A DNA stretch of 64,000 nt from Ptychomitrium polyphyllum. Taxonomy: Eukaryota. The notes below the pieces were generated by a model, which was not told the DNA's origin, made no database searches, and saw only the letters and a program-made list of their open reading frames with translations. The stretch lies in NCBI GenBank assembly GCA_973851085.1, contig OZ316775.1, forward strand, positions 19,034,001 to 19,098,000, written 5' to 3'. Made by a program: the position numbers and the translations under genes. Position 1 is the stretch's first letter, and every line of letters starts with the position of its first letter. Positions 1 through 52,438 of this stretch are shown here, piece by piece.

Positions 1-2498
1 TCGAGACGGTCGCCTGACAGGCCCTTCTGGAACCCTTGATGTTCGTGCTTTTTAGCTCGTCGCGTGAATTGTTCAGCTCGCGATACTTTTGGGTTTTTGT
101 ATCTCTGGGAGAATGGAACAGATACGCGGTTATGGAGTGCGTTTGTTGGGAGCCTTGAAGTTTGGAGAGCATTTGGAGTATTTTAATTCGTTCAAGATGG
201 CCGACATGCGACTGACAGGCTTTTTTGCAACCTCTTACACATCTTGGTTCAAAATTATCGCCCGCGTAGACTATTGACCTTTCATTCTGATATTGTTCGG
301 CGAAGCTAGTTGCTTCCCTGGAGAACTGGCTTACCTTACGAAGAACTGGCTTTTCTGAAGAACTGATTTTGGTTCATGCATGAACTTCTGATTGTCAGAG
401 TCGCACAGATTTGTAACGATTCGAATGTATCTACTCTTGGGGTGTCTGGACTATTTTAATTCGTTCAAGATGGCCGAATCGCGACTGACAGGCTTTTCTG
501 AAACCCTTCACATACTTCATTTCAAGCTTCCAATCTGCGTTTTCCTTTGACCTATCGCAGCAGTCCGTTGATTTGTGAAGATCGGACTTATTGTTCTGCG
601 TGATGCTGGTTCATGCGTGAGCCTTCTGGTTGGCAGAGTAGCCCACATCCATCAGCTTATGGGCGCATGCATGTCTTGGGGGCGGAGGACGTACGGAGTA
701 TTTTAATTCGTATGAAGATTTCACTCCTTCCAGACGGCTGACTGCCAGGACTCCACGAACCCCTTCGCCCTTCTGCTTCTAGCTAATCGCATGCGCTGCT
801 TCATACATATGTCCCTTGCGTTGTGATCTGGTTCATCGTTGAACTTCTTCTGGTTGGCAGAGTTGCGGAGTTCCGCATCAGTATACATCCGACACTCGAT
901 GTGCGTATTCCTGGAGTTTGAAGGACGTTAAACTCGTTGCAAGATCTAGCCCGTGCCAGTCGCTGCATCCAGGCTTTTTCTGGAACCCTAATCATGATCC
1001 TTTTTGGTTTTAGTCGAATTGATCTTTTTATATAGCCCTTTCAGTACTTTGTATTCATCGATAAGCTGTATTTGACTTTCGTTTTCGCAGTCGGGCGTGA
1101 ACAATCTGAAGAACGCTAGTATTTAAACTGAATTTACTCGTCTGGAGTTTAATTCGCTTCTGACGGTTAACATACAGGGTTTTTTTGAAACCCCCTTAGA
1201 TTTAGCTTTAAGCATGTTTTGGTCTTATAGTTTTTTTCAATAGAAAATGACGGGCAATCTAGTTCATTGGTTATCTGCTTTTGATTGGCAGACGCGCTCT
1301 AATATTCCAAAGATGGCGAGTACTTTTTGTACGCAGCTTGTACCGTGAAGGAGATTTGAAGTTCTAATTCATACACGACGGCCTACGCACAGGCTTTTTT
1401 TGAAACCTTTCCCTTTGGATTTTAATCATAAACCTGTGCTCCCTATGCTCCCCATGCTCCCTTACTACTGTGGTTTATCAACCATGTTATGCTTTGCAGT
1501 TTACCGAGTTCTGTGATGAGTTACAATACGAAATGTGATGGTGCTATCCAAAGAGCGATTTTCTGATTTTATTTCGTTAAAAGATTGATTAACAGGACAT
1601 TTTGAATCCTTGATGAATCGTTGAATTTCTAGCTTTTGTAACCTTTGAGCATATAAGGGGTGATAATTTATCGTGAGTTGCTACAAGTGTCGAAGGTGAC
1701 TGTCTGGCAGAGGGGCATAGATCTACGCTTAACGGGAAGTGCGACCTGGAGCGGAGAAATTTTGAAGTATTTTAATTCGTTGGAAAATATTCGTTTGACA
1801 GTCGATGGACTCCTGACAGGCGTTTTTGAAACCCTTTACATACTATTTTTGATCACTTCATTTCAGCTTCCTGCACCAGTTAATTGGATGCACATTTGTA
1901 TGATGTGTTATTATCAAGAGTAGCTGGAATCTTTCTTTCACAAATCCTCTGCTAGTGTTTCTGGTTCATCCATGATCTGCTCTTGGTTGGCAGAGTCACT
2001 CAGTGCCAGTGTTGTGGAGGCATATATCCCTGAGCGAGGACTGGATCGAGCATTTGGTTGCCTGGAGATTTTACTCGATGAAGACATCTAAATGACAGGC
2101 TTCCTTGGAACCTTATTACTTTAACTAGCTTTGAACTGTATTGCTTCGTTTACGGATCCCGATTCCATGTGGTTTGCTTTATTGGTGAGGTGCTCTTGCT
2201 TTGACAGAGGTGCACAGATATTTTGGAGATTACTTTTGGTATGCGTTACTCTGAAAGTATCTGGAGGAGATTTAATTCGCTTCCAACGGTCGACAGACAG
2301 GCTCTTTTGAAACCTTAGTCAATTGCTTTATGCCTCTTAGAGTTTCGTTCTAGCTATAATATCTTATGTGGTTATTCATTGGTATACTGCCTTTGGATGC
2401 AATTAGGGAACAAGAAGCATTGTCAGCTTTCACTTTGACGCACGACTGGAGATTTAATTCGCTCCGGATGGCTGTGACACAGGCTCATTTGAAACCTT
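1..2498 (+). repeat. Tandem array of >=12 diverged ~220-bp units with conserved motifs and variable segments (candidate structured ncRNA array); truncated by window start
   Basis: Motifs recur in the order GGTTCA..TGA / YTGGTTGGCAGAG / variable / CTGGAG-TTTAATTCG / GAYGG / CAGG-(Y)n-GAAACCYT / TAGCT. CAGG anchors are at 18, 216, 489, 746, 970, 1175, 1390, 1593, 1817, 2096, 2298 and 2480 (spacing 182-279 bp). Strand is assumed. Confidence 0.9.
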
Positions 2499-3520
2499 CC
2501 TCTGTTGAATATTTATCTTGGTGTTCTATGTGATCTACATCAGATGTTCTGTTTATACGGGAAACGCATTTACTAGGAAACATCTTTAATAGAGGATGGT
2601 CATCTAGAGGATTGGTTTATAGGACAACTAGTCTTTTGATGCTCAACAGGGAATTGTCTGTTCAGATTCGCATGTGTCAGCACTATATATCGGAAAAACC
2701 TACAGCTCTGTTGTTCATACAAGTGACATTTACGCCAGTTTCGGGAGTATTTCGATTCCTTTATTTGGTCTAACTGAGATTAGTTAGGCTTCTTTAGGTT
2801 GTAGGTTCTTCTAAACGCATGGTTGTCATCTGATAAATTGCTGCAAGTTCTTTCATATGTTTAAACAGCTTTAGTGATGTCTGTTTGTCAACAGCGTTCT
2901 TAGTTTAGATGTTGAATCCTTTCAAATTTACCCGAATTACAAATTACAGCATTTGATCTGAGATATTAGAATTCAGCACGTTTGAATATTTCGTAACCGG
3001 GATCTCTTTGAATTACGTTAGTATAGTGGGTGAACAGGATAATTTGAAGTGTAAACTGCGTACTCCGAATCATACATGGTAAGGTTCTGCCTTGAAATTT
3101 CCACATGTATGTATCGTCATATTACGTGATTGAATCTGTACTATGTGCCGCGAATATTGGGTTTGCAACTCGCTAGTGGTTAAGGACTAGATGTACTGTG
3201 GCGTCGTTGTGTCGAAGCTGTTGAGTTGATAGAGAATGGTGCAATTTTTAATGAAACTATGCATCCAGGGTATTTGATTGATGTGATTTTCTTTTATGGG
3301 GTTTTGAAAATCTTCTGGTGAATCCTCATACTGTAGTATAATTCAGTGGAATTTTATGTTTAGTTTCATGTATAGATATGTCATCAACCTGATGAAGATG
3401 ATTCACAGCCTCAATATTATATGGCCTTTACGCCAGAGAAAGGTGGACTAAGGATAAAGGTAATGCCCGGTGCTGGATGTATCCGATAGTAATGATGGAT
3501 TTTGCATATCTGTACAGAAC

Positions 3521-3690
3521 GAGGAGCTTGAAATCTGGATGTGAAGGATTTAGAAGATTTGGATGTTGCGAGAAGGAGAATCTGGGCGCTGTTGGGAAGA
3601 GCTGGATCTGGGCGCTGCGAGGAGGAGCTGAATCTTGGTGCTGCTTGGAGGAGCTAAATCTTGGCGCTGCGAGGAGGAGAAGCTGGATAT
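3521..3690. repeat. Degenerate ~25-bp minisatellite (GGAGCTGAATCTTGGCGCTGCGAGG-like), about 6 copies
   Basis: Repeated GGAGCT(G/A)(G/A)ATCT(T/G)GG(C/T)GCTG visible at 3575-3690, with looser copies upstream. Confidence 0.75.
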
Positions 3691-5062
3691 TAGAAGTGTA
3701 TTATTTAACGGCTATCGTGCTGTGCCATGTTTAATTATCATGGTTGTATTTTTATTATACACTAAATACACTGATACCGCAACTTAATGTTATGTTTAAA
3801 CATTTCTGAAGTGCTTTGCTATACTTTGATATGTGAAGTACTTTGAATCTTATTAATTACCCCATGTTTTGTCTTGTTTAACCATCCTCCGTAGATTATA
3901 AAATAAAAGTACAAACTACGTCCTTTAGTGTTTTAAGGAAATGCTTCACACAACCCGAGATATGACATACAAGAAATGCTCACTGCAAAGAACAGCTCGC
4001 TTTTCACAATTTCCACCTAATCGCGAAATCGGACCAATTTCCTCATTCCGAATGTTCAAAAATGTTCTACCCTAGTATCTTCTATTCTACGAGTGAGAAG
4101 AGCAGGCGACGCTATGTTTTCCTTTACTCCTTGTAAACAGGACGCACGGAGATTCATGACGCCCTTATCGTCTTCGATTCACCCGCAGTGGAAGTAGCGC
4201 ACCACAAATGCCTGGTTTATCCCGCTAAAAGAAATGTAATTGATGTAAGATTGAGGTCAAATCCATTACTGAATAATCTAGGTCATGTGCGCCAGTAATT
4301 TCTAGTTGTTTGCGTCAGGTAATCACGTACAGCCGGCCTGGTTTTCCATTGCTACCCCTGTCTTTTCACCTTAGACCATTCAGAACCTAACATCAACCAA
4401 AAGAGAAGTTAAGGTGCAGCACAAGCTGACATCCACAGGAGTCATAGATTTACTCCTCCATGGTTCTAAGTGCGCTTAGGGTCGTACCCAAGATTTAACT
4501 ACTTTAAATTTCAACAATCTGATAAAGAACCTTAGAAAATTTGAAAATCGTGTTTCCATTACATTAAAACATCTTTCCGAATTTGGAAATCCACAGAAGT
4601 TTGCTTTTCTTTAAACTTGGATCTCCATGCCCCATTGCAGAAAGTCATAGTTATAAAGAATCTACTTCTCCTTGGCTACAAATGACTCTGATAAGGAAAC
4701 TCATTGTCATTACGGAAGTGTAACTGCTCAAATTCAAACACCGACCATCACATCCTTCACAGTTTAACAGCTGCAGCAGCAATCCCAGCACCACCTGCTC
4801 CAGCGGCTGTAGCAACTGTGGGAATCATCTCAGTTGAAGGTCAATTTCAGGACTACCGTTGCCATAAGTGCAGTGAAATCATTGAAAACATCGGTGTGAG
4901 GAGTCGGGATGCGTACATGAAGATTCGGAGATCTTGATCTCGATCTCCGAGGACACTTCAATCTTATGTTATGTTGTGCAATCACTGCCAATCGTTAAAG
5001 TGATGGGATTTTGAAGTAACACTCTCTGGTTGCAAATGTGGTGTGATGTTGAAGCTATGTCG

Positions 5063-5140: not shown

Positions 5141-6793
5141 ATGGCGAGTCTAGAACGGAACAGGAAGTGGTCGGCTTCTTCGCCTCTGTCCAGGCCTCTC
5201 CCCACACCTGCATCCGAACCGACTTCACGCATCACCACGTCTTTACCCCTGCCTTATGTGGGAGTCAACCCCCGGAGTTCCATCAGTGGGAGAGTATTCA
5301 GAAAACATGCGTTCCACAGGATCACTGAGGAGCACAAGCAGGAGATACGGATGGCATTCGAGTTATTTGATTCGCGGAAAGTTGGAAAGCTCAATTACCG
5401 TGAACTCAAAGTATTTCTTTGTTCTCCCATGATTCAGTGGATGTGTATCTCAACTCAGTTGCAGCGAAGTACTCACCATTCATGTGGTGTCTGTTTCACC
5501 TCCTGGAACTGAGTGGTGGTTCATTTTGCTTAGCAACTGTCAAAAGTTTGAGTGTTGTTATCACTGAATCTGCACATTCTGAAATTGAAAGTGCATTTGT
5601 CGCAAGAAATATGCCTTGGTTGGAGTAGTACTCTAAGGAGTTCTAAAAATCGAATTAGACCAGACTAAGCTATGCTTGATTGTACCTCGATTCAGGTGGC
5701 AATGAGAGCACTGGAGTTTAACGTGAAAAAGCCAGAGGTGAAGATGCTGCTTGAGAAATTTTCTAAAGATGACAATGATGAAGTTAATTATGAAGAATTC
5801 ATGGAAATTAGTAACTAAACCTGCTCTCTCCACTATTTGTGGTCATTTGCTCATCCTCGGCCGGTCCTGCACGTTAGGTCAAGAAATTCATGTGCATTCA
5901 CTCAAGTTTTGCAACCTTTGAATACGGATTGGTTAATCATCACATATGTGCTAGGTGGCAGCAGTGTTGATATCCTCATCTAACAAAAGTGCCTGCAATT
6001 AGATTCAATCCTAGTCGAATCCTCATAAACTGCATTCTTTGGTGCCAGTGGTTCATAAATACAAAGACAGAGACCCCAATGAAGATGTGATGAAGGCGTT
6101 CCGATATTTCGACGAGGACGGGACCGGGAAAATTTCTGTAAGTCTCTTTATGCTCCATTGTGGCTCATATATGCTAACAGTCCATTAACATTCATGTTAG
6201 GTCTTAGGCCTAATCCTTCTGGTCCTTGAACGTACTACAAAATATTCTGCCATCTGCAGAATGATAGATCCATTTTCGCTTGTAAATTCTCTTTACAGCT
6301 CAAGAACATGCGTAAAATCTCAAAGGAGCTTGGTGAAAACATCACAGATGAAGAACTTATAACTATGATTGATGAATGTAAGCTTTCTGCGAAACCTTGA
6401 ACTTCTTGAGAATCTGTAGGTGCTGAATTGATGGGTATAATCTGTTGTTCCATTTGCTGCTCTCAATCTATGAGTTTCCGAATGGAGAACATTTATGAGT
6501 CACAGATTACGAGAAAATAAATACTGTGCTGACCGATGTGTTCCACTTTATGTCTTGCAGTTGACAAGGATGCGGATGGAGAAAGTAAGTCTCCTCATGC
6601 TCAGCACCAAAAAAACCATTTCCTTCCCTTCAACGGCAGTCTAGATCATCAGCTTTGTTGTGAGATTGTGGCCATTTCCATAGAGAACCTAGTACCTAAA
6701 TCTTCTGTTTTCTGTTGCTCGTGTTTAGTAAACATGACCGAGTTTTTTGAAATCATGAAGACGAGGCACAAAGAAGATGACCCGAGTCACTAA
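5141..6793 (+). CDS. Centrin (EF-hand, centrin-3/Cdc31-like), 6 exons: 5141-5410, 5696-5810, 6049-6137, 6299-6377, 6561-6584, 6729-6793
   Basis: GT-AG introns join in phase to give ...ITEEHKQEIRMAFELFD...ELK|VAMRALEFNVKK...DPNEDVMKAFRYFDEDGTGKIS|LKNMRKISKELGENITDEELITMIDE|FDKDADGE|INMTEFFEIM, the centrin signature. Confidence 0.92.
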
Positions 6794-7974
6794 GTTTCTG
6801 CACTGAGGTCCAAGAAGGCATAAGAACGCGGTGTTTGTGAGACTGCTGACTCTTTCCGACAGAGAGATCGAGCTTCATTAACACCATCCTCTAAAAAGTT
6901 TTCTCTGCTTGCAATACCGACAGAATTTGCAACGTTCCGATGCTGACAATCAGCAACCAGCTATCCTTGGTGACAATACACATGTACATGCGTAGTGTCC
7001 AGTATCTAGCTGATTCAGCGTTTTCAGCAGTGTATAATATCAAAGTTATGATTCTGGACACTACGTCAGTCGAATGGTTGGAATAACGATTATGGTCATA
7101 ATCAGTGCTCCCCTAGTTCATGTCTAACCATTCAAGTACTGGTGATTGATTATTTCAAACTCAGAGCTCACAGAGATTTTCACCTGTTGACAACTCCCTG
7201 GAAAACTCAACTCTGCATCCAACTGTGCAGACCCATTTTGTTGTTAATTGCATGTAAGTATACAATAAGTTTTGGACGAAGAAGAGCAATGGGCAAAAAG
7301 ATGTGCGGACAAGTAATGGCACTATGAGACAAGCGAGAAAGGTTTAGCAGCAATGCGAGGCATGTATAAAATAGCTAGAAGCGGCATGGGACCGACAAGA
7401 GAATGTTGGCAAATATAAGGAATAAAGGCAACCTTGATGTTTTCTTTGCTCACCATGCACCTCTAGGCTGTTTTGTCATGTGTTTTTTTCTTTCATTATG
7501 TAATTAAACATGTAGCTTCTTGGAAGTATGCATTCTTCTTTCTTGCTAAGAAAATTCTGGCCCCATCTTCTTTAAATTTTTCCAAAAAAATATGGGCACC
7601 TTCTGCACGCTTTAATATATTGCTAGGTCATAGAAGTTGTTTTTGTTCTTTCCAAAAATATATACATCAATTCCTAAGAACCTTCCAAATTAGTTTTGTT
7701 TCACTAATGCAATGTGAAAATAGCTACTATGGACTGGATAAGCTCTTACGGGTAAAAGCTACCTATGTGACCCTGATTGAAATATACTTAATTCAACTTC
7801 ATAATCTAAAACCAATCGAACAATATTCTGTTGACTATGGGCTTCAAAAATGCATTCAACACCGTTCTAGCTATTTCAAAAAATTCTTTACGTCTATATC
7901 TCAGAAAGTTCATCTCTGATTGAAAATACGCTTGCACATTTGAAATCAAAATGGCCCAAACACATGAAGGAATA

Positions 7975-8250
7975 AGATGCACTCCCACAACCGTCGTGCC
8001 ACCCAAGATCGTTACTGCACCCAAAAAAGCCACTGCATCCAAAACCGTCACTGCATTCGAAGCCGTTACCACATTCAAAATCGAGACTACACACAATTTC
8101 GCCACAGCGCCCCAAACCGTCGCTGCACCCCAAAAATGTCACTGCACCCCAAAAATGTCACTGCACCCCAAAAATGTCACTGCACCCCAAAAATGTCACT
8201 GCACCCAATACCGTAACGGCACCCAAACGCGTCGCCGCACGCAAAACCCA
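7975..8250. repeat. 19-bp minisatellite CAAAAATGTCACTGCACCC (4 perfect copies 8131-8206) with degenerate flanking copies
   Basis: Direct repeats read from the sequence; they explain the overlapping low-complexity ORFs at 7806-8408. Confidence 0.9.
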
Positions 8251-9127
8251 TCGATTAGACACCGAGGACGCGCACAATGCGCAGAACGAAATGAGCAGAG
8301 GGCGTAGATAAGGAGGAAGGCAGCGGACAGGGGGTGGCACGGTGTGGGAGCGTCGCACTGAAAGAGCGTGGACTGCACTGCACTGCACTGCTTTGGACTG
8401 GACTGCAATGCAGTGGACTAGCCCGCAGGACGTCGCGAGGGTTCTCCAGGCTTGGGCCTCACTTACTGCCGAGTGCGGGCGCTGTCAATCCCGCGGACTC
8501 CAACGACGCCACCTCCGTCATAGTCCGGGTTCGTTTTTCCCCTCAGTAGCCATCGCTTCCATCCGCAGCTCACTCCAGCGCGACTGCTTCCGTCTTGGAG
8601 TTTTAGGGTTTGACATGCCCGTCATTGTGTCCTGTTACCGGTGGCGTTGAGGTGGGAGGTTCTCCGGTAGATTCAACGGATTGGATTCCTCTCTTGAATG
8701 CCACCAGCGTCGGGTCGTGGGTTGATTGGGTGGGGAGTAGATTCTGGGCGGAATTTTGGGGTTTTTCATTTTTAGGGTTACGGAGTTGGGATTTCCGGTG
8801 GTGAGGTTGCGGTGCTGCGTTGCGTTGCGTTGCATTGCGTTTCGTTGTAGTGCGCGTGATGTTGCGTTACGGTGATACGGCAAGGTTGTCTGCAAGATGT
8901 TTGGGGTTTTTTCGTTGTTGGATAGGTTTAGGATTTTGAGCGGATTTCACCCATTTCTGCGGATTTTTTACTTCGAGCGTAGGATTTTGAGTGGTAGGTC
9001 GTAGGGTGATTTCCGTTTACTTGACGAGGAAGTTCTTTTTCCCTTTTTCTTCATTCCTGGGATTATTTCAGGGTTTGTGGATTGAACAGCACTTGGCAGA
9101 AGTCCAACTCTAAGCACACTGTCAGCA

Positions 9128-11683
9128 ATGGAACGATTTAGTATGGATAATGAATTTGAAGAGGGAATTTGGATAGACGACGAATTTTTTGCCCGGAAGC
9201 AGAAGACGAAGAAGCGACAAACGAAAGAGGAGGCGTTGTATGGAGTGGAAGACAGTGATTCCGATTACGAAGACTCAGGGAAAAGACGGCGTCGAGGCGA
9301 TAATAAGAAGAGCGACTTGACGAAGCCAATAGGATTCGTGTCAAAGGGGACAGTCATGCCATCGGAAGAGATTGATAAGGAGGAGAAAGAGAAAGAGGGG
9401 CATGCGAACGGTGTCGGTGCTGGATTAGGGTTTGGAACCGCAGGCCTGGGATCTGCTGCTGGTTTGGGGTTTGGCGCAAAGGGGAGCGGGAAACAGTTCG
9501 AAGAGGTTGAGGAGGTTGAGTTGCTTCCTACAGCGTTTGGGAGGAGAATTAAAGAAGGTGCGGAGCGTAGAGAGATGGAGAGAGAAAAGGGAAAGAAAGC
9601 TGCCACGAAGGCGAAATCATTGGCGAGCGGAGGTCCAGGTTCTGTCGCTGGTTTTGAAGTGCACACTAAAGGGATTGGGATGAAGCTGCTAGAGAAAATG
9701 GGTTACAAAGGTGGTGGTCTGGGTAAAAATGAACAGGGTATTGCGCAGCCAATTGAAGCCAAGCTTCGACCCAAGAATATGGGTATGGGATTTAATGAAT
9801 TTAGGGAAACAATGACTGGGTTGCCTCCTCCTCCTGGGATGCAGCAAACAGACGAAGATGTTGTGGTCGAAAAACCTAAGTCCAAGGAGAAGCTTTGGAT
9901 GAAAAAGAACAAAGGGAAGAAGAAAACAGAGCTTCGCACTGCAGCTGAACTTATAGCGGAGAAAGAGGCACAGAATGGAGGGATTGTTCACCAGACAATT
10001 CTGGATATGCGGGGCCCCCAGCCCAGGGTGTTAACTAATTTGGAGAGTTTGAATGCCGAGCAGACGGCAATTGAAGACAATACTCCGATGCCTGAGTTGC
10101 AGCATAACCTACGCCTGATTCTAGACATGACAGAGGCTGAGGTTCAAACGTGCAATCAAAAGCTACAAAGCGAGAGGGACACGGTGTTGATTCTAAACAA
10201 AGACAGAGAGAGACTGGAAACCGCAGTTAGCGCACAGGAGAAGCAGATTATTATCATGGAAGCTGTGATGACCTCTCTTCAGCAGATTCGGAGACAGGTT
10301 GCGGAGGGAGGAATGAATTTAGAAAATTTAGCCAACGTGTTTGCGAGGATTAAGCATACATATCGAGAAGAGTACAAGTTATTCAGTATTGGCCTCATAG
10401 CCCTTTCATTTGCATTGCCGTTGATGTCTAACTTGTTTAGAGGTTGGCAACCGTTTCTGCAACCGCAACATGGTATCGAGGCTATTGCTGCATGGCAGGA
10501 GCTCCTGCAGGGAAACGAAGCAAATGATCATGCAATATTCCAAGATGTTGATAATTCACCTTATGTTCAGCTAGTCCTTGAGGTCATATTCCCACATATT
10601 CGATTGGCCACTACTAACGTATGGCAACCTCGAGATCCAGAGCCGATACTGAGGTTTCTCGAAGCTTGGGATAAGGTGCTTCCTGGAGGTATTAAACAGA
10701 GTCTTCTTGAAGGACTTGTAATGCCAAAGCTAACTGCTGCTGTAGACGCATGGGATCCCCGGCTTGAAGAAGTACCTATCCATGCATGGCTTCATCCTTG
10801 GCTACCTTGGCTAGGTACGCGAATGGAACCTCTTTATGTTCCTATTCGATACAAGTTGAACGTAGCGCTGGTAAATTGGCATCCGGGGGACTCATCTGCT
10901 CTTGCCCTCCTCTCCCCTTGGAAAACCGTGTTTGATCCTGCCAACTGGGAACTGCTGATTGTGCGATCAATAATGCCCAAGCTTATCCAGGCAATGCAGG
11001 AGTTTGTAATAAATCCTGCCAATCAAATTTTGGATCAGTTTCACTGGGTTATGGCTTGGGTTTCTGCTGTTCCTGTGCATCATATGGTTAATCTTTTGGA
11101 AATACATTTTTTCCCGAAGTGGCACCAGGTTTTACATCACTGGCTCAGTGCTAGTCCTGATTATGACGAGGTTACTGCGTGGTTTGTGGGTTGGAAGTCC
11201 TTGCTTCCGACGGAGCTTTTGGCTAACGAGAAGGTACGACACCAGCTTAGTTTAGCACTAGAATTAATAAATCAAGGTATGGAGGGAACGCCAAGCGTTC
11301 AACCAGCAACACGAGATAAGCTGACATATCTTCGAGCCGCAGAACAGAGATTATATGAATTTTCCCAGCAAGCTCATGGAGCCGCATATGTACAACCGCA
11401 GAAGCAGCATGCACCAACTTATATGGACGAGAATGGATCTGCAGCAGAGATGACTTTGAAAGAAGTGGTAGAAGTGTTTGCCCAAGACAACGATGTCCAT
11501 TTCATGCCTAAACCAGGGCGCACACATGAGGGTCTACAGGTCTACAGCTTTGGTGCAGTCAACGTGGTTGTAGATACTGCGAAAGAGAGTATCTTGGCTC
11601 AGACCGGAGATGGGTGGAATCCGGTCCATCTTGAACAGATCTTGGAGATGCATCGCAGCCGTGGTGGTAGCCGGTGGAAGTAA
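9128..11683 (+). CDS. NTR1: TFIP11/STIP/Ntr1-like spliceosome disassembly factor (G-patch + GCFC domain), intronless CDS, 851 aa
   Basis: N-terminal MERFSMDNEFE...TKEEALYG; G-patch HTKGIGMKLLEKMGYKGGGLGKNEQGIAQPI; PMPELQHNLRL; IHAWLHPWLP; C-terminal FMPKPGRTHEGLQVYSFG. Confidence 0.93.
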   Translation: MERFSMDNEFEEGIWIDDEFFARKQKTKKRQTKEEALYGVEDSDSDYEDSGKRRRRGDNKKSDLTKPIGFVSKGTVMPSEEIDKEEKEKEGHANGVGAGLGFGTAGLGSAAGLGFGAKGSGKQFEEVEEVELLPTAFGRRIKEGAERREMEREKGKKAATKAKSLASGGPGSVAGFEVHTKGIGMKLLEKMGYKGGGLGKNEQGIAQPIEAKLRPKNMGMGFNEFRETMTGLPPPPGMQQTDEDVVVEKPKSKEKLWMKKNKGKKKTELRTAAELIAEKEAQNGGIVHQTILDMRGPQPRVLTNLESLNAEQTAIEDNTPMPELQHNLRLILDMTEAEVQTCNQKLQSERDTVLILNKDRERLETAVSAQEKQIIIMEAVMTSLQQIRRQVAEGGMNLENLANVFARIKHTYREEYKLFSIGLIALSFALPLMSNLFRGWQPFLQPQHGIEAIAAWQELLQGNEANDHAIFQDVDNSPYVQLVLEVIFPHIRLATTNVWQPRDPEPILRFLEAWDKVLPGGIKQSLLEGLVMPKLTAAVDAWDPRLEEVPIHAWLHPWLPWLGTRMEPLYVPIRYKLNVALVNWHPGDSSALALLSPWKTVFDPANWELLIVRSIMPKLIQAMQEFVINPANQILDQFHWVMAWVSAVPVHHMVNLLEIHFFPKWHQVLHHWLSASPDYDEVTAWFVGWKSLLPTELLANEKVRHQLSLALELINQGMEGTPSVQPATRDKLTYLRAAEQRLYEFSQQAHGAAYVQPQKQHAPTYMDENGSAAEMTLKEVVEVFAQDNDVHFMPKPGRTHEGLQVYSFGAVNVVVDTAKESILAQTGDGWNPVHLEQILEMHRSRGGSRWK

Positions 11684-34699: not shown

Positions 34700-37600
34700 T
34701 GGTTCATGGAGCGATTCATAATTAATTCACAAATTCATAATTTTTGAAAAATTTATAATTAAGTCACTGTATCTATAGACGAACTCAAAAAAAATCTTTT
34801 TCAATTGTTAATAAATTTATATTTGTAAGTTTATTAGGAAAGATAAGCATAGAAGACTTAAATATATGAGAAGAATTTTTATTTTTTGAATATAAAATAT
34901 ATATTTAAAACAAATAAGGCAGCCATCATATCTTCATGATAGCATTCAACGCAAGTTTTTGTTCCAAAAAGTGAAGTCTTAAATAAAGTCCTAGAAAATG
35001 TCTATACAGATATGTACAAACAATCAAACATACAAACAAAACAAGTCTATAAGGTTTCTTTTTGTATATTAAATATAAAAATTAAAACGTGCAATATGCG
35101 TTAATTTTGTCATAATGCAATTTCAATATATTTTAAAATTTTGTTCAAGTTTCTTGATTCTCTTTGATGTATTGAAGAAAAAAATTCTTCAATTCAATAC
35201 CATCTAATTTAATTTTAATTTGAAAAAAAATTAATTTTAATTTGAAAAAATAACTATTTAATTAATTCCTAAAAGACCTCTTTTTATAAGAAGGTTTTTA
35301 AATTTTGGACAGGCTTAAATATTGACAATTTTAAATGAATGCTTTTTTTTATAAATTAGAAGTATAGGCATATATTAGCTTTGCATTAGTATAATCATCT
35401 TCTTTTTAATAACATTAAGACCAAAGTTATAGTGCCTTAAATAGTTTTTGCCACTTATTAGGCAATTTGGAACATTTTATTATGTTAGTGTCTTACGTTT
35501 AAGATTTATTACAAATACAATTAATATGATATTATTTGGAAATTTTATAAATAACTTTTTTCCTATGTTATAAAATTTTTATTCAAATAAGAATCAAAGT
35601 TGAAAACATTACAAAATAGGATGCAAATATATCAATATCTTTTATTAAATTTAAGAAATAAATGTTAGAAGTTTTGTTTGTTTATTATTTATACTATTTT
35701 ATTTTTTTCAAGAAGCAACTATCCTTGTTTTGAATGTTTTTTTTTGACAATTTATAATGAATAAAATTTACCAAAACAACATTGTCTCTATTAATTATAT
35801 TATTTTTTTTCTTTCATTGCAAAGTAATCTTGAACATGTTATATTCCTTAACTACCTTTCAAGTTTAACATGCAAAGTATGTACTATGGTTAAAAAACCT
35901 CAACTTTTGCATAGCATGAAATTTTATTATAATAGCAATCAAAGTTTGTTAATCTTATTTTATATAATGCAAAAAACTTCCAGATGCTATGATTCTCAGA
36001 TAATGTAATCAACTTTGCTATAATCAAATGTATACATTATTCTTATAATATATCTGAAGATAATATGGCTGAAGGTGGTTAAAATTGTTTTTTTTGGGAT
36101 TTGTTTCTTTTTATTAAAAATAGCATTTCTTAATGTTTTTCTTTTATAAAATATAGTTAAGGGATTTTAGGAAGTAATAGAAATTAGCTTGAAAAATTAT
36201 GAATTTAATATTTATACTTCAAATATAAATATCTTATTATAAAAAATCACTTTGTTTAAAAGAAACTAATTTCATTTATATTTATTGATTTTTTTAAAGG
36301 CATGATATGATTTAGTATACTTGATAATAGATGTTTTAAGTCCATTTCTAATATGAAACAAAGAAATTAAGAAATTATTCAATTTCTAATAAGAAAAATA
36401 AATTTTTGTTTTATTTGATATTAGTAACAAGATGCAAGTTTTGAATGGGCGATTTTGCGTGGATATACCTTACTCAAAATAATATTTGTGTCTACATTAT
36501 AGTAAAATGGCATATTCCAAATGTTGTTAATATCAAACAAACAATTGTTAAACTATAATAGTTTAACAAAATATTTTTAAAAACTTTAATTAATCATTAT
36601 GATGATTCTATCTTCTAATAAATTTTTAATAAACTATATTCACAACATGTAGTCTTCAATATTAATTAATTTTGACAAAAACATAGATTTATTCATGACC
36701 ACATTATATATTATTTTCTTTCAAAAGATTTTAAAATATTTGCTTTAAAACAACATTAATTGAATTTTTTTGTTTTAAAGGAAGAAAATTTAATCAAAGC
36801 TGCATTCAATTCTATATAAAACTAGTTTGTGATTAATTCAATGAACGTACAAATTTTTTTAATTACAAAGGTTATGTATTTTTATATCTTTATTAAAAAG
36901 GTTCTTTTACTAAGTTTTTTTGTTTACTAAGAAAATTCAAAAAAGTATTTTGCATTATGATAAAATTTTATATATTTTGTATAAATATTGGTTTTTTTTT
37001 CAATGAATAAATATTACTTGAATTAAAAAATTAAAGAACCAATGAATTACGGCTCAAGTTTTCTAATCTAGAACAAAAATATTAATATTTTTTTAATGTT
37101 GTAAAGGCAATGATATTAATTTTATTGCAATTATGCCATTATATATTTAAAAGACATATTTAAAATATGATTCACTAATAAAAAACACTAAAATTTTTAA
37201 ATACATGCAACTAAAATTTTGGATATGAAAAATGAACTTGTAACTTTGAATTTTATGAATTCTATATTGAATTGAATAAATATTTTCAATTTCAAATCTA
37301 TCAACATTGACAGTTTCCATTAGACTATAAATGTTTATTACTTTACAATTGACAAATAACATTTCCTCTTAATCTATTATTAACAATTAGTATGCATTTG
37401 AATATTGTATTTGTTTTCATGTACATGGCCTAGAACCTTAATTACAAGGGTCATCATTATTCTCTTATGTACCACATGGCTATAAATAATACATATAATA
37501 CAAGCATGTATATGGTAACCATTGAAAGTTTTGCAATATACATCTAATTTTTTATAATATTAGTGTACAATCTATGATTATATAGTTTTCTTGATATGCC

Positions 37601-38450
37601 ACTATCTTCTAAGACTATTAATAAACTACATATTTATTTTCAAAATCACAACAAATCAATTATCTTCTAGCCTTTTTATCATTACTTATTCCATTCAAAT
37701 TTGGTTTGTTCAATTAACAACAAAAAACTATATAATAGCACAAGGCATTGAATTCAACTTAAAACATATAAAAATGAGGGAATTGAAATGTATAAAAGAA
37801 ACTCAATAAAAATTATAACTTTTTCACATTAATTGAATCTAGTATTATATAATTTTTATGTGGCACACAAATAATAAATGTATATTAATATGTATTAATA
37901 AAAAAATGTATACAAATACACATAGATAGTTGAATATAAAAATTTTATAAATTTTTTATAAATTTTCATTTGGTTAAAAATCAAGCGCTTTGATTAAAAG
38001 AAATTGATTATTTTTAGCATGCCAAATTTTTTTTGATAAAACTTTTATCTATTCAAAATTATATCTAATCTAATTTAATGTTCTTTATTTATTAACTAAT
38101 TGATTTATTTTTGGTTGTTTATTTGTTTTATAAGACAATAGTGTTCAAGCTAAAAATTGTTAAATAAAAAACTTAATTACGGAAATTATTAAAATGTTAA
38201 AATTCAAAATTGATCCACATTATACATTGTAGGTATTTCATAAAATTGTTTGGTTGGGTTTTCCACATTCACTTCCATTTACACTTATAAGACTTCAAAA
38301 GATCTGATAAAGCTATTAGTTCCTTTTGAAGTTTATACAAAATCACTGAATTCACAAATGCTTTATGAATGGATAATTCACATTTCAAACTTTGCATTAA
38401 AACGCCCTAAAGAGTTAAAACGAAATAAACAAATCATGTTTAAGGTGAAT
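34700..38450. other. Extremely AT-rich non-coding tract (probable ancient TE relic)
   Basis: Long A/T runs, almost no CpG, only spurious ORFs. Confidence 0.5.
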
Positions 38451-46720: not shown

Positions 46721-49700
46721 ATGGGGAGCGATGTTCGCCCTCCGAAGAGATTGTGTATGAGGGAGGATGGAGGGAGCACAAGTACCGGTGAGAGTTTTTT
46801 GTGATTTTAGTCGCCTTCTAGGAGCATCATTTACTCTCATAGGGATTTGAATTTGATCGACAATTTGAGTTGATGAAATTTGAGCTGATGAATTTGGGTT
46901 TCTTACTTTCTAAATCACTGTCGTCACCCGTTGTTCTATTATGTAGCTGGGCTTTCAAGGTACGACGTATTCATAAGCCATCGAGGCCCTGATACAAAGG
47001 CGACCTTTGTGAGCTTTCTCCAGAAGGAACTGGATGCAAGTGGACTGCGGTCATTCTTAGATTGCAAATCCATCGGTTTTGGTGAGGATAATTGGGAATG
47101 TATAGGGCATGCCATTGAGAAGACGCCCATATGCGTGGTCGTCTTTTCGGAGAATTTTGCAGAGTCGGAGTGGTGTATGAGGGAGTTGCACGTCATGTTG
47201 CGTAGTCCTGGCGTGAAGGTCCTACCCGTCTTCTTCAACGTGCGACCGAGCGAAGTGAGGTTCCCTGAGAGTGGTCAACTGAAACGCGGGTTTGAGAAGT
47301 TGATGACGCGACATGACAAGAAGGACATTGATCAGTATAGAGCAGATCTCAAAGAAGCATCAGGGCTTAGGGGATGGGAGCACTCAAGTACACAGAAGAG
47401 GTAAATGTTCTAAAATAACGCAGTATGACGAGTGCTCAGAATGAGATTGACATTGAGGATGGATATTGATGTACTGCGCATGATTTTGGTTGTAGGTTGC
47501 TTGGGGACCTGGTGACGGAGGTTGCTCGTGAAGTAATCAAACTGGCCAACAAGCCACTTCCTTTGGATGTAGGTGAATATGTCATTGGTGTTACACAAGT
47601 AGCAGATGAGATCATTGAGATCCTTGACAAGAAGGAGGTTTTGATTTTGGGATTGTGGGGAATGGGTGGAATTGGAAAGTCGACATTGGCAAGGGAGCTG
47701 TTCAACAAGTTGTCTAAAAGAGAGTTTGATTCAACATGCTTTGTTGAAGACATCGCGGAGAAGGTGAACCGAGGGGGCGTGGTAAGAGTACAAAGTCGTA
47801 TTTTGAAAGACTTGTGCAAAAATGGTCCAATGCAAATTGATGATAAATCTGAAGGGAAGTCCATTCTTGAAAAAAGGTTATGTGAGAAGCGAATTCTTTT
47901 GGTCTTGGATGATGTTTGTGACAAACATGAGAGGGAGTATTGGATATCCCGCAAAATGATGTCAAGGGGCAGCATGTGCATAGTGACATCCCGTGATAGG
48001 CGTGTGTTTGAGAGTATGATTTCATTTGATATCAGATGTGAGGTACATATCCACGATGTCCAAGCACTAAGCAAAGTGGATTCCAAATGGGTATTTGCAT
48101 CTTATGCATTTGGAGGTCATGGAAGAGTGAAGCGAGAAGTTGAAGAGTTGGTCACGAATATAAGTGAGGCATGTGGAGGAGTTCCATTGGTGCTAAAAGT
48201 GTGTGGAGCTCTCTTGAAAGGTGAGTGGAGTTTGGACGTTTGGAAAGATGTGATGAAGAAATTAAACCGTGGACGCATAATGGATGAAGAGAAGATCTTT
48301 GATTGTCTTCGAATTAGCTATGATGCTCTTCAACAAGAGCAACAACAGATGTTCTTAGATGTTGCAAGTGCATTGCTTGGAGAATCAAAAGATTTGGCCA
48401 TACGAGTGTGGAACTCACACGGGTGGAGTGCTATATTGGATGTGCGGAGCCTTGTGGAGAAGGCTTTGATCACTGTGGATTGGGCTGGGAACTTTAGGAT
48501 GCACGACCACTTGAGGGATATGGGACGTAAGATTATCATGGATGAAAGGCGGAAAAGTGGTGTTTGTAAACACTTATGGATGCCGGAGTCATTATTGATA
48601 CTTGAAGGCGAGGAGGTATGTTTTGAAATGCATATTTATTGGTCTCTTTATTTAATAACTTCATTTGTGAAGCATGAAGCATGTACGTAATGGATGTGGT
48701 TGGTAGTGTAGGGATATGATAGTGTTGTGTTTCAATTGTGCAAATTCCTTTGTGTGCATCAGAGTAATAAACATGCTTCTTGATTCATGTGATAGTTGAT
48801 GTTGGATGCTAAAATAGCTTTAATACATACGTTCTTTGCAGGCATTGCCAGGTTCTCTTGAAACAATGGTAATCTACAAGGATGGCAAAAATGTGGATGA
48901 TGAGGACAATGATTGTTTTGATGAGGAAGAAAATGAGCGGCATGGTGGTGATATCAATTTGGATGTGGTGCGTATGAAAGATTTGCGCATTTTAATATGT
49001 CATGGAAGCATAAATGTGACATCTGGGTTTGGAAAATCTTTGTGCTGGTTTAAATGCCAAAGATGGGAGCATACATATGGATGTATAAGTCCTATGATAT
49101 TGCCAAATAATAAGTTGGTGATCCTAAATTTGGTAGGATCTAAAAGATTAATTATACCGGAATGTTTTGGAAGCTTACGGAAGTTGGAAGTATTGGATCT
49201 AAGTAAATGTGGACACCTCAAAGCATTGCCCGCTTCTTTCAGGCGTTTGAGTAATTTGCAGAAGCTTCTCCTTGGTGGTTCTGGAATGGAGTGCTTGTTG
49301 GATTCTTTTGGTGAGTTGGCAAAGCTGGAAGAATTGTATTTGAGTGGATGTAGAGAACTCAAAATGCTTCCCGCTTCTTTTGGGCGTTTGTGTAATTTGC
49401 ACGAGCTTCACTTGAGTGGTTCTGGAATCGAGAGGTTGCCGGAATCTTTTGGTGAGTTGGTGAAATTGGAAGGGTTGAATTTGAGTGGATGTGGACAACT
49501 AAGAACACTTCCTACTTCTTTTGGGCGTTTGAATAAATTACAGAGGCTTCATCTTGATGGTTCTGGAATTGAGAGCTTGCCGGAATCTTTTGGTGAGTTG
49601 GTAAAGTTGGAAGTATTATATTTGAGTGAATGTGAACAACTCAAAATGTTATGCATTTCCTTTGGACAACTAAGGAATTTGGTGGAGCTTCGGCTTGAAT

Positions 49701-52438
49701 ATTCTGAAATTGAGAGCTTGCCAGAATCTTTTGGTGAACTTGTGAAGTTGAAAGAATTGTATTTGAATGGATGTGCACAACTCAAAAAGTTGCCCGCTTC
49801 TTTTGGGCGTTTGAGTGAATTGCAGAGGCTGCACCTTGATGGTTCTGGAATGGAGAGCTTGCCAAAGTCTTTTGGTGAGCTGGCAAATTTGGAAGTGTTG
49901 GATTTGAATGGATGTAGACAACTAAAAAAACTGCCTATTTCTTTCGGGCACATGAGTAATTTGGTGGCGCTTCAACTTCAACTTTCTGGAATCGATAGCT
50001 TGCCAGAGTCTTTTGGTGAGCTGGCAAATTTGAAAGTGTTGGATTTGAATGCATGTGGACAACTCAAAATGTTGCCTGCTTCTTTTGGATGTTTAAGTAA
50101 TTTGCAGATGTTTTTCCTTGGTGGTTCTGGAATCGAGAGCTTGCCAGAGTCTTTTGGTGAGTTGGCAAAGCTACAAATATTGTCATTAAATGGCTGTAAA
50201 GAACTGAAAATGCTGCAAGATACTTTTGGGCGTTTGAATAAGTTGCAAGAGCTTGTCTTTAATAATTCTAGAATTGAGAGCTTGCCGGAGTCTTTTGGTG
50301 AATTGGCAAAGCTACAAGTGTTGTCATTAAATGGTTGTGGACAACTAAAAATGCTGCAAGCTTCTTTTGGGCATCTAAGTAATTTGCGGATACTTCTTCT
50401 TGATGGTTCTGGAATTGAGAGCTTGTCGGAGTCTTTTGGTGAGCTGGTAAATTTGAAAGAATTGTATATGACCAATTGTGGAGAATTCAAATTGCTGCCT
50501 ACTTCTTTTGGGCGTCTAAGTAATTTGGAGGAGCTTCATCTTGGTGGTTCTGGAATTAAGAGCTTGCCGGAGTCTTTTAGTGAGCTGGCAAAGTTGGAAG
50601 GGTTGTATTTGAGTGAATGTGGACAATTTAGAATGCTCCCTGCTTCTTTTGGGCATTTGAATAAATTGCAAAGGCTTCACCTTTATGGTTCTGGAATTGA
50701 AAGCTTGCCGGAGTCTTTTGGTGAGTTGGCAAAGTTGGAAGAATTGTATTTAAGTGGATGTAGACAACTCAAAATGCTACCTGCTTCTTTTGGGCATCTA
50801 AGTAATTTGCAGAAGCTTCATCTTCATGATTCTGGAATTGAGAGCTTGCCGGAGTCTTTTGGTGAGTTGGCAAAGTTGGAAGAATTGTATTTAAGTGGAT
50901 GTAGACAACTCAAAATGATACCCGCTTCTTTTGGGCGTTTAAGTAAATTACAAAAGCTTCACCTTGATGGTTCTGTAATCAAGAGCTTGTCAGAGGCTTT
51001 TGGTGAGTTAGCAAAGTTGGAAGAGTTGTATTTGAGTGGATGTGGACAACTCAAAATGCTCTCTGCTACTTTTGGGCGTTTGAGTAAATTGCAAAGGCTT
51101 CACCTTGATGGTTCTAGAATTGAGAGCTTGCCAGAGTCTTTTAGTCAGCTGGCAAATTTGGAAGTGTTGTATTTGAGTGAATGTGAACAACTCAAAATGC
51201 TACCTACTTCTTTTGGACTTCTAAGGAATTTGGTGGAGCTTCGGCTTGAACTTTCTGGAATTGAGAACTTACCAGAGTCTTTTGGTGAACTCGCAAAGTT
51301 GAAAGAGTTGTATTTGAGTGGATGTGGACAACTCAAAATGTTGCCTGCTTCTTTTGGGCATGTGAGTAATTTGGAGGAGCTTCAACTTCAATTTTCTGGA
51401 ATGGAGAGCTTGCCGGAGTCTTTTGGTGAGCTAGCAAAGTTGGAAGTGTTGTATTTGAGTGGATGTGGACAACTAAAAATGCTACCTAAATCTTTTGGGT
51501 GTTTAAATAATTTGCAGAAGCTTCACCTTCATGGTTCTGGAATTGAAAGCTTGCCGGAGTCTTTTGGTGAGCTGGCAAAGTTGGAAGAGTTGTATTTGAG
51601 TGGATGTAAACAACTCAAAATGCTCCCTGCTTCTTTTGGGTGTTTGAGTAATTTGCAAGAGCTTCTCCTTGGTGATTCTGGAATCGAAAGCTTGTTGGAG
51701 TCTTTTGGTGAATTGACAAATTTGAAAGTGTTGAATTTGGGTGGCTGTGGACAGCTTAAAATGCTTCCTGTTTCTTTTGGACATTTGAATAAATTACAGA
51801 GGCTTCACCTATATGGTTCTATAATAGAAGGCTTGCCAGAGTCTTTTGATGAGCTGACAAAGCTACAATTGTTGTCATTGAGTGGATGTGGACAACTCAA
51901 AACACTACCTGCTTCTTTCGGACATCTGAACAATTTGCAGGAGCTTTTCCTTGGTGGGTCTGGAATTGAGAGCTTGCCACATTCTTTTGGTACGCTGACA
52001 AATTTAAAGGAGTTGTATTTGAGTGGATGTAGACTACTTAAAATTCTTCCAGCTTCTTTTGGGCATATGAGTAATTTGGAGGAGCTTCAACTTCAACTTT
52101 CTGGAATTGAGAGCTTACCGGAGTCTTTTGGTGAGCTGACAAATTTAAAAGCGCTGTATTTGAGTGGCTGTGGACAACTCAAAATGCTTCCCGCTTCTTT
52201 TGGGCATGTGAGTAATTTGGAGAAGCTTCACCTTGGTGGTTCTGGACTTGAGAGCTTGCCGGAGTCTTTTGGTGAGCTAGCAAAGTTGAAAGAATTGGAT
52301 TTGAGTGGATGTGGACAACTCAAAACGCTATTTGCTTTTTTTGGGTGCCTTAGTAATTTGCAGAGGCTTTGCCTTGATGGTTCTCAAATCAAGAGCTTGC
52401 CAGAGTCTTTTCATGAACTTGTAGAGTTGAAAAACTAG
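46721..52438 (+). CDS. TIR-NB-ARC-LRR immune receptor (TNL), 4 exons: 46721-46787, 46947-47400, 47496-48615, 48842-52438; ~1745 aa
   Basis: TIR YDVFISHRGPDTK...SEWCMREL; P-loop GMGGIGKST; kinase-2 LLVLDDV; RNBS-B IVTSRD; GVPL; MHD; 23 tandem 47-aa double-LRR units; introns join in phases 1, 2 and 0. Confidence 0.93.
49150..52438 (+). repeat. 141-bp coding tandem repeat (47-aa double LRR) x ~23
   Basis: Repeating LPESFGELxKLxxLYLSGCxQLKMLPASFGxLSNLxxLxLxGSGIES. Confidence 0.95.

Follow-up and report, generated by a model that had tools for sequence, protein, structure and literature searches.

The mammalian NORAD consists of 12 units of ~300 nt that carry four motifs; small stems and a stretch rich in U belong to these (PMC4947167). 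In plants, polycistronic snoRNA/scaRNA clusters combine small conserved cores with U-rich spacers on one strand (PMC4660826). Another plant noncoding RNA, HID1, is conserved and has a reported moss homologue (PMC10226578); it has been described as structured, 236 nt long and accompanied by a tandem paralogue (PMC10226578, PMC6095000, PMC4563214, PMC6854645, PMC9673970, bioRxiv 10.1101/2021.09.17.460835).

Here we describe an array of diverged repeats in the nuclear DNA of the moss Ptychomitrium polyphyllum, located at the beginning of a 64,000-nt stretch of contig OZ316775.1 (the window, which is the whole stretch analysed). The array (positions 1-2498, + strand) contains at least 12 tandem non-coding units of 182-278 nt each (about 180-280), with pairwise identities of 36-65%. 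A unit is made up of a T-rich spacer, motif A (TGGTTCAT), motif B (YYTG-RTTGG-CAGAG), 45-80 variable bases, motif C (TTTAATTCG), 15-36 bases and motif D (ACAGG..AACC), in that order.

By analogy, NORAD is the closest design. Both are built of about a dozen old tandem units that are no longer strictly identical, with four short motifs, a U-rich stretch, small stems and some units that are more intact than others (PMC4947167). Unlike NORAD, the moss array has units of ~215 nt rather than ~300, and no UGURUAUA or UGUANAUA element was found on either strand of 1-2520. Because the Pumilio element is absent, NORAD serves as an analogy rather than as a class to which the array would belong, and homology is not proposed. 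The plant snoRNA/scaRNA clusters resemble the array in having cores of similar size, U-rich spacers and a single strand; unlike them, the array has no C/D or H/ACA box pattern, guide complementarity or Rfam match. Three motif strings were absent from the supplements of PMC4660826, of which 12 of 13 were searched. HID1, at 236 nt, is longer than the moss core, a comparison made by description only. Gomafu/MIAT contains branch-point repeats, that is, splice-signal-like motifs in a non-coding region. The moss array differs in that TACTAAC is missing and the motifs lie within 200-nt modules.

Layout of the repeat array

Units were delimited by the recurrences of motif D, which lies at 17 in the partial unit that opens the window (unit 0) and, in units 1 to 11, at 215, 488, 745, 969, 1174, 1389, 1592, 1816, 2095, 2297 and 2479, giving 11 whole units and the tail of a twelfth. 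All motifs hold one orientation (+) throughout. The cores, from A to D, span 125-165 nt, and T makes up 39% of the spacers vs 33% of the cores.

Unit 0 (14-36) has motif D alone inside the window, and in unit 1 (37-233), with C at 182, motifs A and B are unrecognisable. In unit 2 (234-507), A at 371-386 includes a perfect 14-bp palindrome (372-385) and is followed by B at 386-400 and C at 455. Unit 3 (508-764) has A at 608-623, B at 624-638, C at 702 and a second C-like copy at ~719; motif C is doubled in some units. Unit 4 (765-989) carries A at 830-845, B at 848-862 and a degenerate C at ~928. In unit 5 (990-1196), a weak A at 1054 and a B with an insertion precede C at 1148, which sits in a 9-bp interrupted stem, and D at 1174-1193, the sole strong D hairpin on the + strand. 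The next units are unit 6 (1197-1408; A at 1263, B at 1279-1293, C at 1363 without a stem), unit 7, which is the most diverged (1409-1610; A at 1474, B at ~1497, C at 1568), and unit 8 (1611-1835; weak A at 1682, B at 1698-1712, C at 1771). Unit 9 (1836-2113) has A at 1965, B at 1981-1995 and C at 2070, again without a stem, and unit 10 (2114-2315) has A at 2178, B at 2194-2209 and C at 2271. The last, unit 11 (2316-2498), combines A at 2375, a decayed B and C at 2453 in a 6-bp stem. In 8 of 12 units (within 50-2360), D has a further motif, YAGCT, 12-38 nt to its 3' side; this fifth motif, which the first-pass annotation does not mention, is preceded in several units by CCTT(N)AY-like bases.

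The hairpins of the first-pass annotation cover 372-2498. The array is larger, beginning before base 1 and ending at ~2498. The window start cuts the array, as seen from the D motif at 17, and contigs run further upstream; thus the array start, like any promoter, lies outside the window. These contigs come from two sequencing runs of one sample (X1 and X2), perhaps the source of the window itself; they hold the array in one piece together with 3,241 nt upstream of base 1, and they match it without differing letters. The breaks between X2 contigs at 1612, 2155 and 2532 all coincide with GATC or GANTC sites and have the appearance of library junctions rather than of duplications. A scan of the 64-kb window with the unit profile matched the array units and nothing else, so that no additional unit was found downstream of unit 11. 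Among the X1 and X2 contigs passing our filter, no second copy of the array was present at >=80% identity beyond pieces of 30-40 nt.

Motif conservation and local folding

The four short motifs are kept beyond what a neutral model predicts. At a mean unit identity of 0.40, seven of 11 units carry TTTAATTCG without a mismatch, and 16 columns show the same base in 10 or all 11 units; neutral simulations (n=160, identity 0.35-0.42), which assume uniform rates and a star tree, reached at most 4 of 11 units and 12 columns, respectively. Simulations at higher identity (0.56-0.64) did reach sharing in 7 of 11. The unit tree is itself near a star, with none of its eight inner branches strongly supported (units 5 and 6 pair at 91/94), and so the shared motifs are not due to recent copying. 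In motif D, the bases CAGG, G, A and C are invariant in all 12 copies. A combined C+D pattern has five matches in the window, all within the array, and none in 100 shuffles. Motifs are lacking or damaged in units 1, 7 and 11. Selection is a plausible cause of this conservation, judged from paralogues only and against a uniform-rate model.

It had been proposed that the motifs form four small hairpins conserved by compensatory changes. The hairpins quoted in support (A at 372-385, 608-623 and 830-845; B at 386-400, 624-638 and 848-862; C at 445-470 and 2448-2465; D at 1177-1193) are all present, and each adopts the drawn fold locally (-2.1 to -6.0 kcal/mol); they represent the best cases from a larger set. 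Across the units, four conserved hairpins did not emerge. The 11 cores fold no better than 100 dinucleotide shuffles of each, with a mean z-score of the minimum free energy of -0.05 on the + strand and -0.45 on the - strand (units range from -1.09 to +0.96), and in each of the stems broken pairs are more frequent than two-sided changes. Neither the A+B block (10 units) nor the C+D block (11 units) yielded any RNAalifold pairs, the MAFFT alignment of the C+D block having motif D out of register; stem-by-stem covariation counts were taken from short in-register alignments.

In those alignments, hairpin A pairs in 42 of 60 cells, with 18 unpaired, six one-sided changes and a single two-sided one (in unit 10, at 2178), and 305 of 500 shuffles reach its covariation score. 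Hairpin B, counted in 9 of 11 units (without units 1 and 5), pairs in 38 of 51 cells, with 13 unpaired and three two-sided changes (293/500 shuffles). The figures for hairpin D are 49 of 60 paired, 11 unpaired and one two-sided change (229/500 shuffles, or 93/500 in the register originally drawn); two of its pairs are invariant and therefore uninformative on covariation. The two quoted examples of hairpin C use different registers around the loop. In one register, 31 of 55 cells are paired, with nine two-sided changes and only 4 of 500 shuffles scoring as high; C is the best case of the four, and slid registers pair nearly as often. The register of the second example gives 32 of 66 paired and 203/500 shuffles, which is chance level. 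Related sequences pass the covariation control in 5-25% of unconstrained alignments, and no stem showed covariation that survived the selection-aware control. Most of the changes cited as compensatory are one-sided G:U changes, and the A swaps cited are all one-sided.

Swapping 3' arms between units requires no fixed register. On the + strand this gave p=0.013 (A), 0.85 (B), 0.018 (C) and 0.11 (D), and on the - strand p=0.13, 0.61, 0.36 and 0.037 in the same order; a duplex version on the + strand gave 0.054, 0.97, 0.030 and 0.21. To allow for the hairpins having been picked from the same sequences, 96 loop positions per strand were swap-tested. Values of p<0.02 occurred at 3 of 96 positions on each strand, and p<0.05 at 10 and 7; on the + strand, A and C take the first two places (p=0.006 and 0.008). 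The scan yields similar values by chance, so that A and C, the leading candidates, do not exceed what it would be expected to give. Nominal support is weak for hairpins A and C and, on the + strand, absent for B and D. Long-range pairing (B with D, A with D and others) was also considered, and none of 20 segment pairs per strand was significant after correction for the number of tests.

In the predicted ensembles, a C stem of at least ~3 pairs forms in 6 of 10 units and an A stem in 2-3; B and D hardly form, and D averages -1.3 kcal/mol on the + strand. Across 10 units, the five leading bases of motif C are 0.7 unpaired on average. The U-rich loop proposed for hairpin C is supported insofar as the motif tends to lie unpaired within a stem that varies, in roughly half of the units. 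There is a weak suggestion that TTTAATTCG is presented in a hairpin loop, with the register of the stem differing from unit to unit. With 9-12 paralogues the power is low, and weak local structure is compatible with the data. The first-pass annotation had named absent covariation and shuffle-like folding energies as grounds for giving up the hairpins, and both largely apply. Taken as a whole, the covariation evidence for four compensated hairpins is weak; what the first-pass annotation had observed is partly confirmed and its interpretation partly supported.

G:U-compatible substitutions had been taken to favour the + strand as the RNA. Counts of G:U vs A.C cells (A 9:6, B 8:2, C 9:2, D 3:14) do point to the + strand for A, B and C, but to the - strand for D. 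On the latter strand, motif D forms a stem of 5-7 bp in all 12 units, at -3.2 to -7.5 kcal/mol, and is stabler than on the + strand in 11 of them. Since D folds better on the - strand, G:U pairing leaves the strand unfixed; with transitions as common as they are, counts of this kind are of little help for either strand. Base composition gives better, if indirect, support for the + strand: T outnumbers A by 861 to 562 over 1-2500, a skew that is partly pseudo-replicated within the repeat and that runs on through unique sequence to ~3750, where it fades or flips. The non-repeat flank (2499-3750, +) has the same T>A and G>C skew as the array, and the sign is shared by the region behind a + strand TFIP11 gene and by a + strand LRR gene. 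This skew suggests that the array is transcribed from the + strand, and the flank may be the 3' part of the same transcription unit.

Candidate explanations

Known classes of RNA were compared with the units. In Rfam, four matches of 12-15 bits in 1-3500 lie far under the gathering scores, and the window as a whole has none at E<=1. For a box C/D snoRNA cluster, RTGATGA (box C) is found in 1 of 11 units on the + strand and 0 of 11 on the - strand, with CTGA scattered. The two long hairpins with pockets of a box H/ACA snoRNA are absent, as is any stable or shared fold; ACA heads motif D in 10 of 12 units, and ANANNA, as read from DNA rather than from mapped 3' ends, is at no fixed place and is missing on the + strand from 2 of 11. 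The longest pairing to sense rRNA averages 8.5-9.8 nt vs 8.4-9.6 nt for the antisense control, with eukaryotic rDNA from contig L132 and others, not the moss's own, as the target, and blast matches of 11-14 nt to rRNA fall on both strands. Of the A box and B box patterns of Pol III type 2 genes (tRNA, SINE, vault RNA), the first has a similar sequence at motif B in 3 of 11 units and the second is found in 0 of 11 on the + strand; ARAGORN reported no tRNA genes. Sm-like sites are absent or sporadic in the units. A miRNA cluster was rejected for want of a long stable fold-back (z ~0), the conserved parts being loops and short blocks, and a protein-coding repeat was rejected as well: motif spacings and T-run lengths break the frame, and the array ORFs tested have no Pfam match at the cut-off. 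For Y RNA, vault RNA, hammerhead, histone stem-loop, U14, snR30 and U12-intron, judged by the features generally associated with them, either Rfam support or core bases are missing.

The locus is a repeat with motif conservation beyond the neutral model, no second close copy among the contigs compared, and no coding or known-RNA-family signal. The explanation we prefer, with a probability of about 0.38, is that the array is part of a long + strand noncoding RNA whose modules offer the same protein-binding sites through primary sequence, not through four fixed hairpins. Each module retains four short motifs while the remainder of its sequence drifts, and would present the same putative protein-binding motifs with at most loose local structure, C being held in a loop. 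Recognition would probably be of the primary sequence. We favour an RNA that stays whole, as a multivalent scaffold or decoy, over one cut to unit length, because no shared unit-length fold and no end-protecting box were found. Against the scaffold reading, Pumilio elements or other named protein sites have no match in the array, and in 11 of 12 units the fold of motif D is the better one on the - strand, where its arm swap reached p=0.037.

A cut precursor is the basis of another explanation, which we consider somewhat unlikely: the array could be a polycistronic cluster of orphan small RNAs, with the 125-165 nt cores cut out, the U-rich spacers discarded and some copies decaying. Core length and T-rich spacers fit this layout, plant snoRNAs are mostly polycistronic (PMC4660826), and there is the ACA at the head of D in 10 of 12 units; the same cluster would have to do with box C in 1 of 11 units, an H box at no fixed place, no weighty Rfam match, no shared fold and rRNA complementarity not above control, and with conservation that continues for at least 12 nt past the ACA. 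The motif pattern alone would be the same if conserved sites acted at the DNA level. They would be bound by DNA-binding proteins at roughly nucleosome spacing and act on a neighbouring gene, with the hairpins as by-products of palindromic sites. The perfect 14-bp palindrome of unit 2, which folds equally on both strands, the period of ~200 nt and G:U counts that point to both strands are all consistent with this idea; the strong one-strand skew across and past the array and the single orientation of the motifs argue against it, and we judge it unlikely.

The motifs can also be read with the plant splice-signal consensus, in which case the array might consist of splice-acceptor-like modules serving as alternative acceptors or as a splicing-factor decoy, a proposal we regard as improbable. 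The module-by-module assignment, to which we give equally little weight, takes A+B as a branch point (TTCAT) and acceptor (TTGGCAG) ~21-26 nt apart, C+D as TTTAAT ~24 nt before CAG/G, and the later motif as YAG/CT after D. The column profile of motif A (T10 T9 C8 A10 T9, of 10) agrees with such an assignment, as do the CAG present in all 12 D motifs and all but one of 10 B motifs, and the YAGCT on the 3' side of D (8 of 12 units, with a background of 0.26 per 58 nt). No conserved donor site was seen by eye in the alignment, however; bases needless for splicing are conserved too (TTCG, AACC and AG after B), D has no pyrimidine tract, and there is no homology between the AB and CD halves (score 13.4 vs 13.2 shuffled). 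A structured + strand RNA with four conserved hairpins, as originally suggested, is very improbable. It can draw on A and C as the two best of 96 + strand windows and on the four + strand arm-swap values, which combine to ~0.006 before allowing for the choice of hairpins; the equal 3 of 96 low values on each strand, unit z-scores on both sides of zero, the complete lack of consensus pairs, p=0.85 for B and the feeble D fold all weigh against it. Least credence goes to an old satellite without function whose shared motifs arose from uneven mutation or patchy gene conversion. No family, fold or relative was found, and units 1, 7 and 11 have lost or damaged motifs, as might be expected of a satellite, but none of the 160 matched neutral simulations reached the observed sharing, and the star-like tree also speaks against it.

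Returning to the + strand RNA with repeated binding sites, one more specific formulation is possible if doubtful: a moss noncoding RNA of at least 12 modules, each with UUUAAUUCG in a register-shifting loop and three further motifs, could be either a multivalent scaffold or decoy for RNA-binding proteins or a new box-less class of small RNP RNA. Should the array prove to be a NORAD-like scaffold or a new class of small RNA, it would broaden a design that has until now been described in mammals. Clear sequence-level constraint has been found in few plant long noncoding RNAs, and the array is worth follow-up for its constrained motifs. Gene targeting is routine in mosses, and the four motifs, being marked by the paralogues, are ready targets for mutation and pull-down there.

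Relatives and genomic surroundings

A search of the open literature found no paper on the array. The motif-pattern scan gave no loci in viral contigs and no match in phages and plasmids. Two loci in metagenome contigs are the same single-match stretch amid fungus-like genes, without further motifs. A looser A+B pattern has 120 single matches in viral contigs, none of which matches the rest of the unit profile. These viral, metagenome, phage and plasmid collections are poor in moss DNA, and so the lack of relatives is a limit of reach rather than a sign of rarity. In prokaryote assemblies, 36 contigs (L123-L158) match the eukaryotic 18S pattern; all six of those checked are eukaryotic rDNA according to Rfam, and contamination is the likely source.

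Several other features are found downstream of the array. Immediately ahead of the change in base skew, a 26-bp purine-rich repeat occurs in four copies (3567-3686). On the - strand of 4750-4900, short translated pieces (DVFNDF and GAGGAGIAAA) have no Pfam match; we take them to resemble malic-enzyme motifs, and they are possibly the remains of a decayed pseudogene. A centrin-like EF-hand gene lies at ~5150-6900, identified from weak Pfam EF-hand matches with exons placed by eye. The open reading frame at 9128-11683 encodes a TFIP11-type protein, with 84% and 82% identity to two Physcomitrium patens proteins and 57-58% to those of Marchantia, which by itself marks the DNA as moss. Upstream of this gene, 8000-8420 contains tandem repeats of 18-19 bp and 5 bp, parts of which also appear on other contigs from the same sample. 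The region 35000-38000 is strongly AT-rich (GC 19-21%), and a long open frame at 48824-52438 contains ~23 copies of a 141-bp LRR-like repeat.
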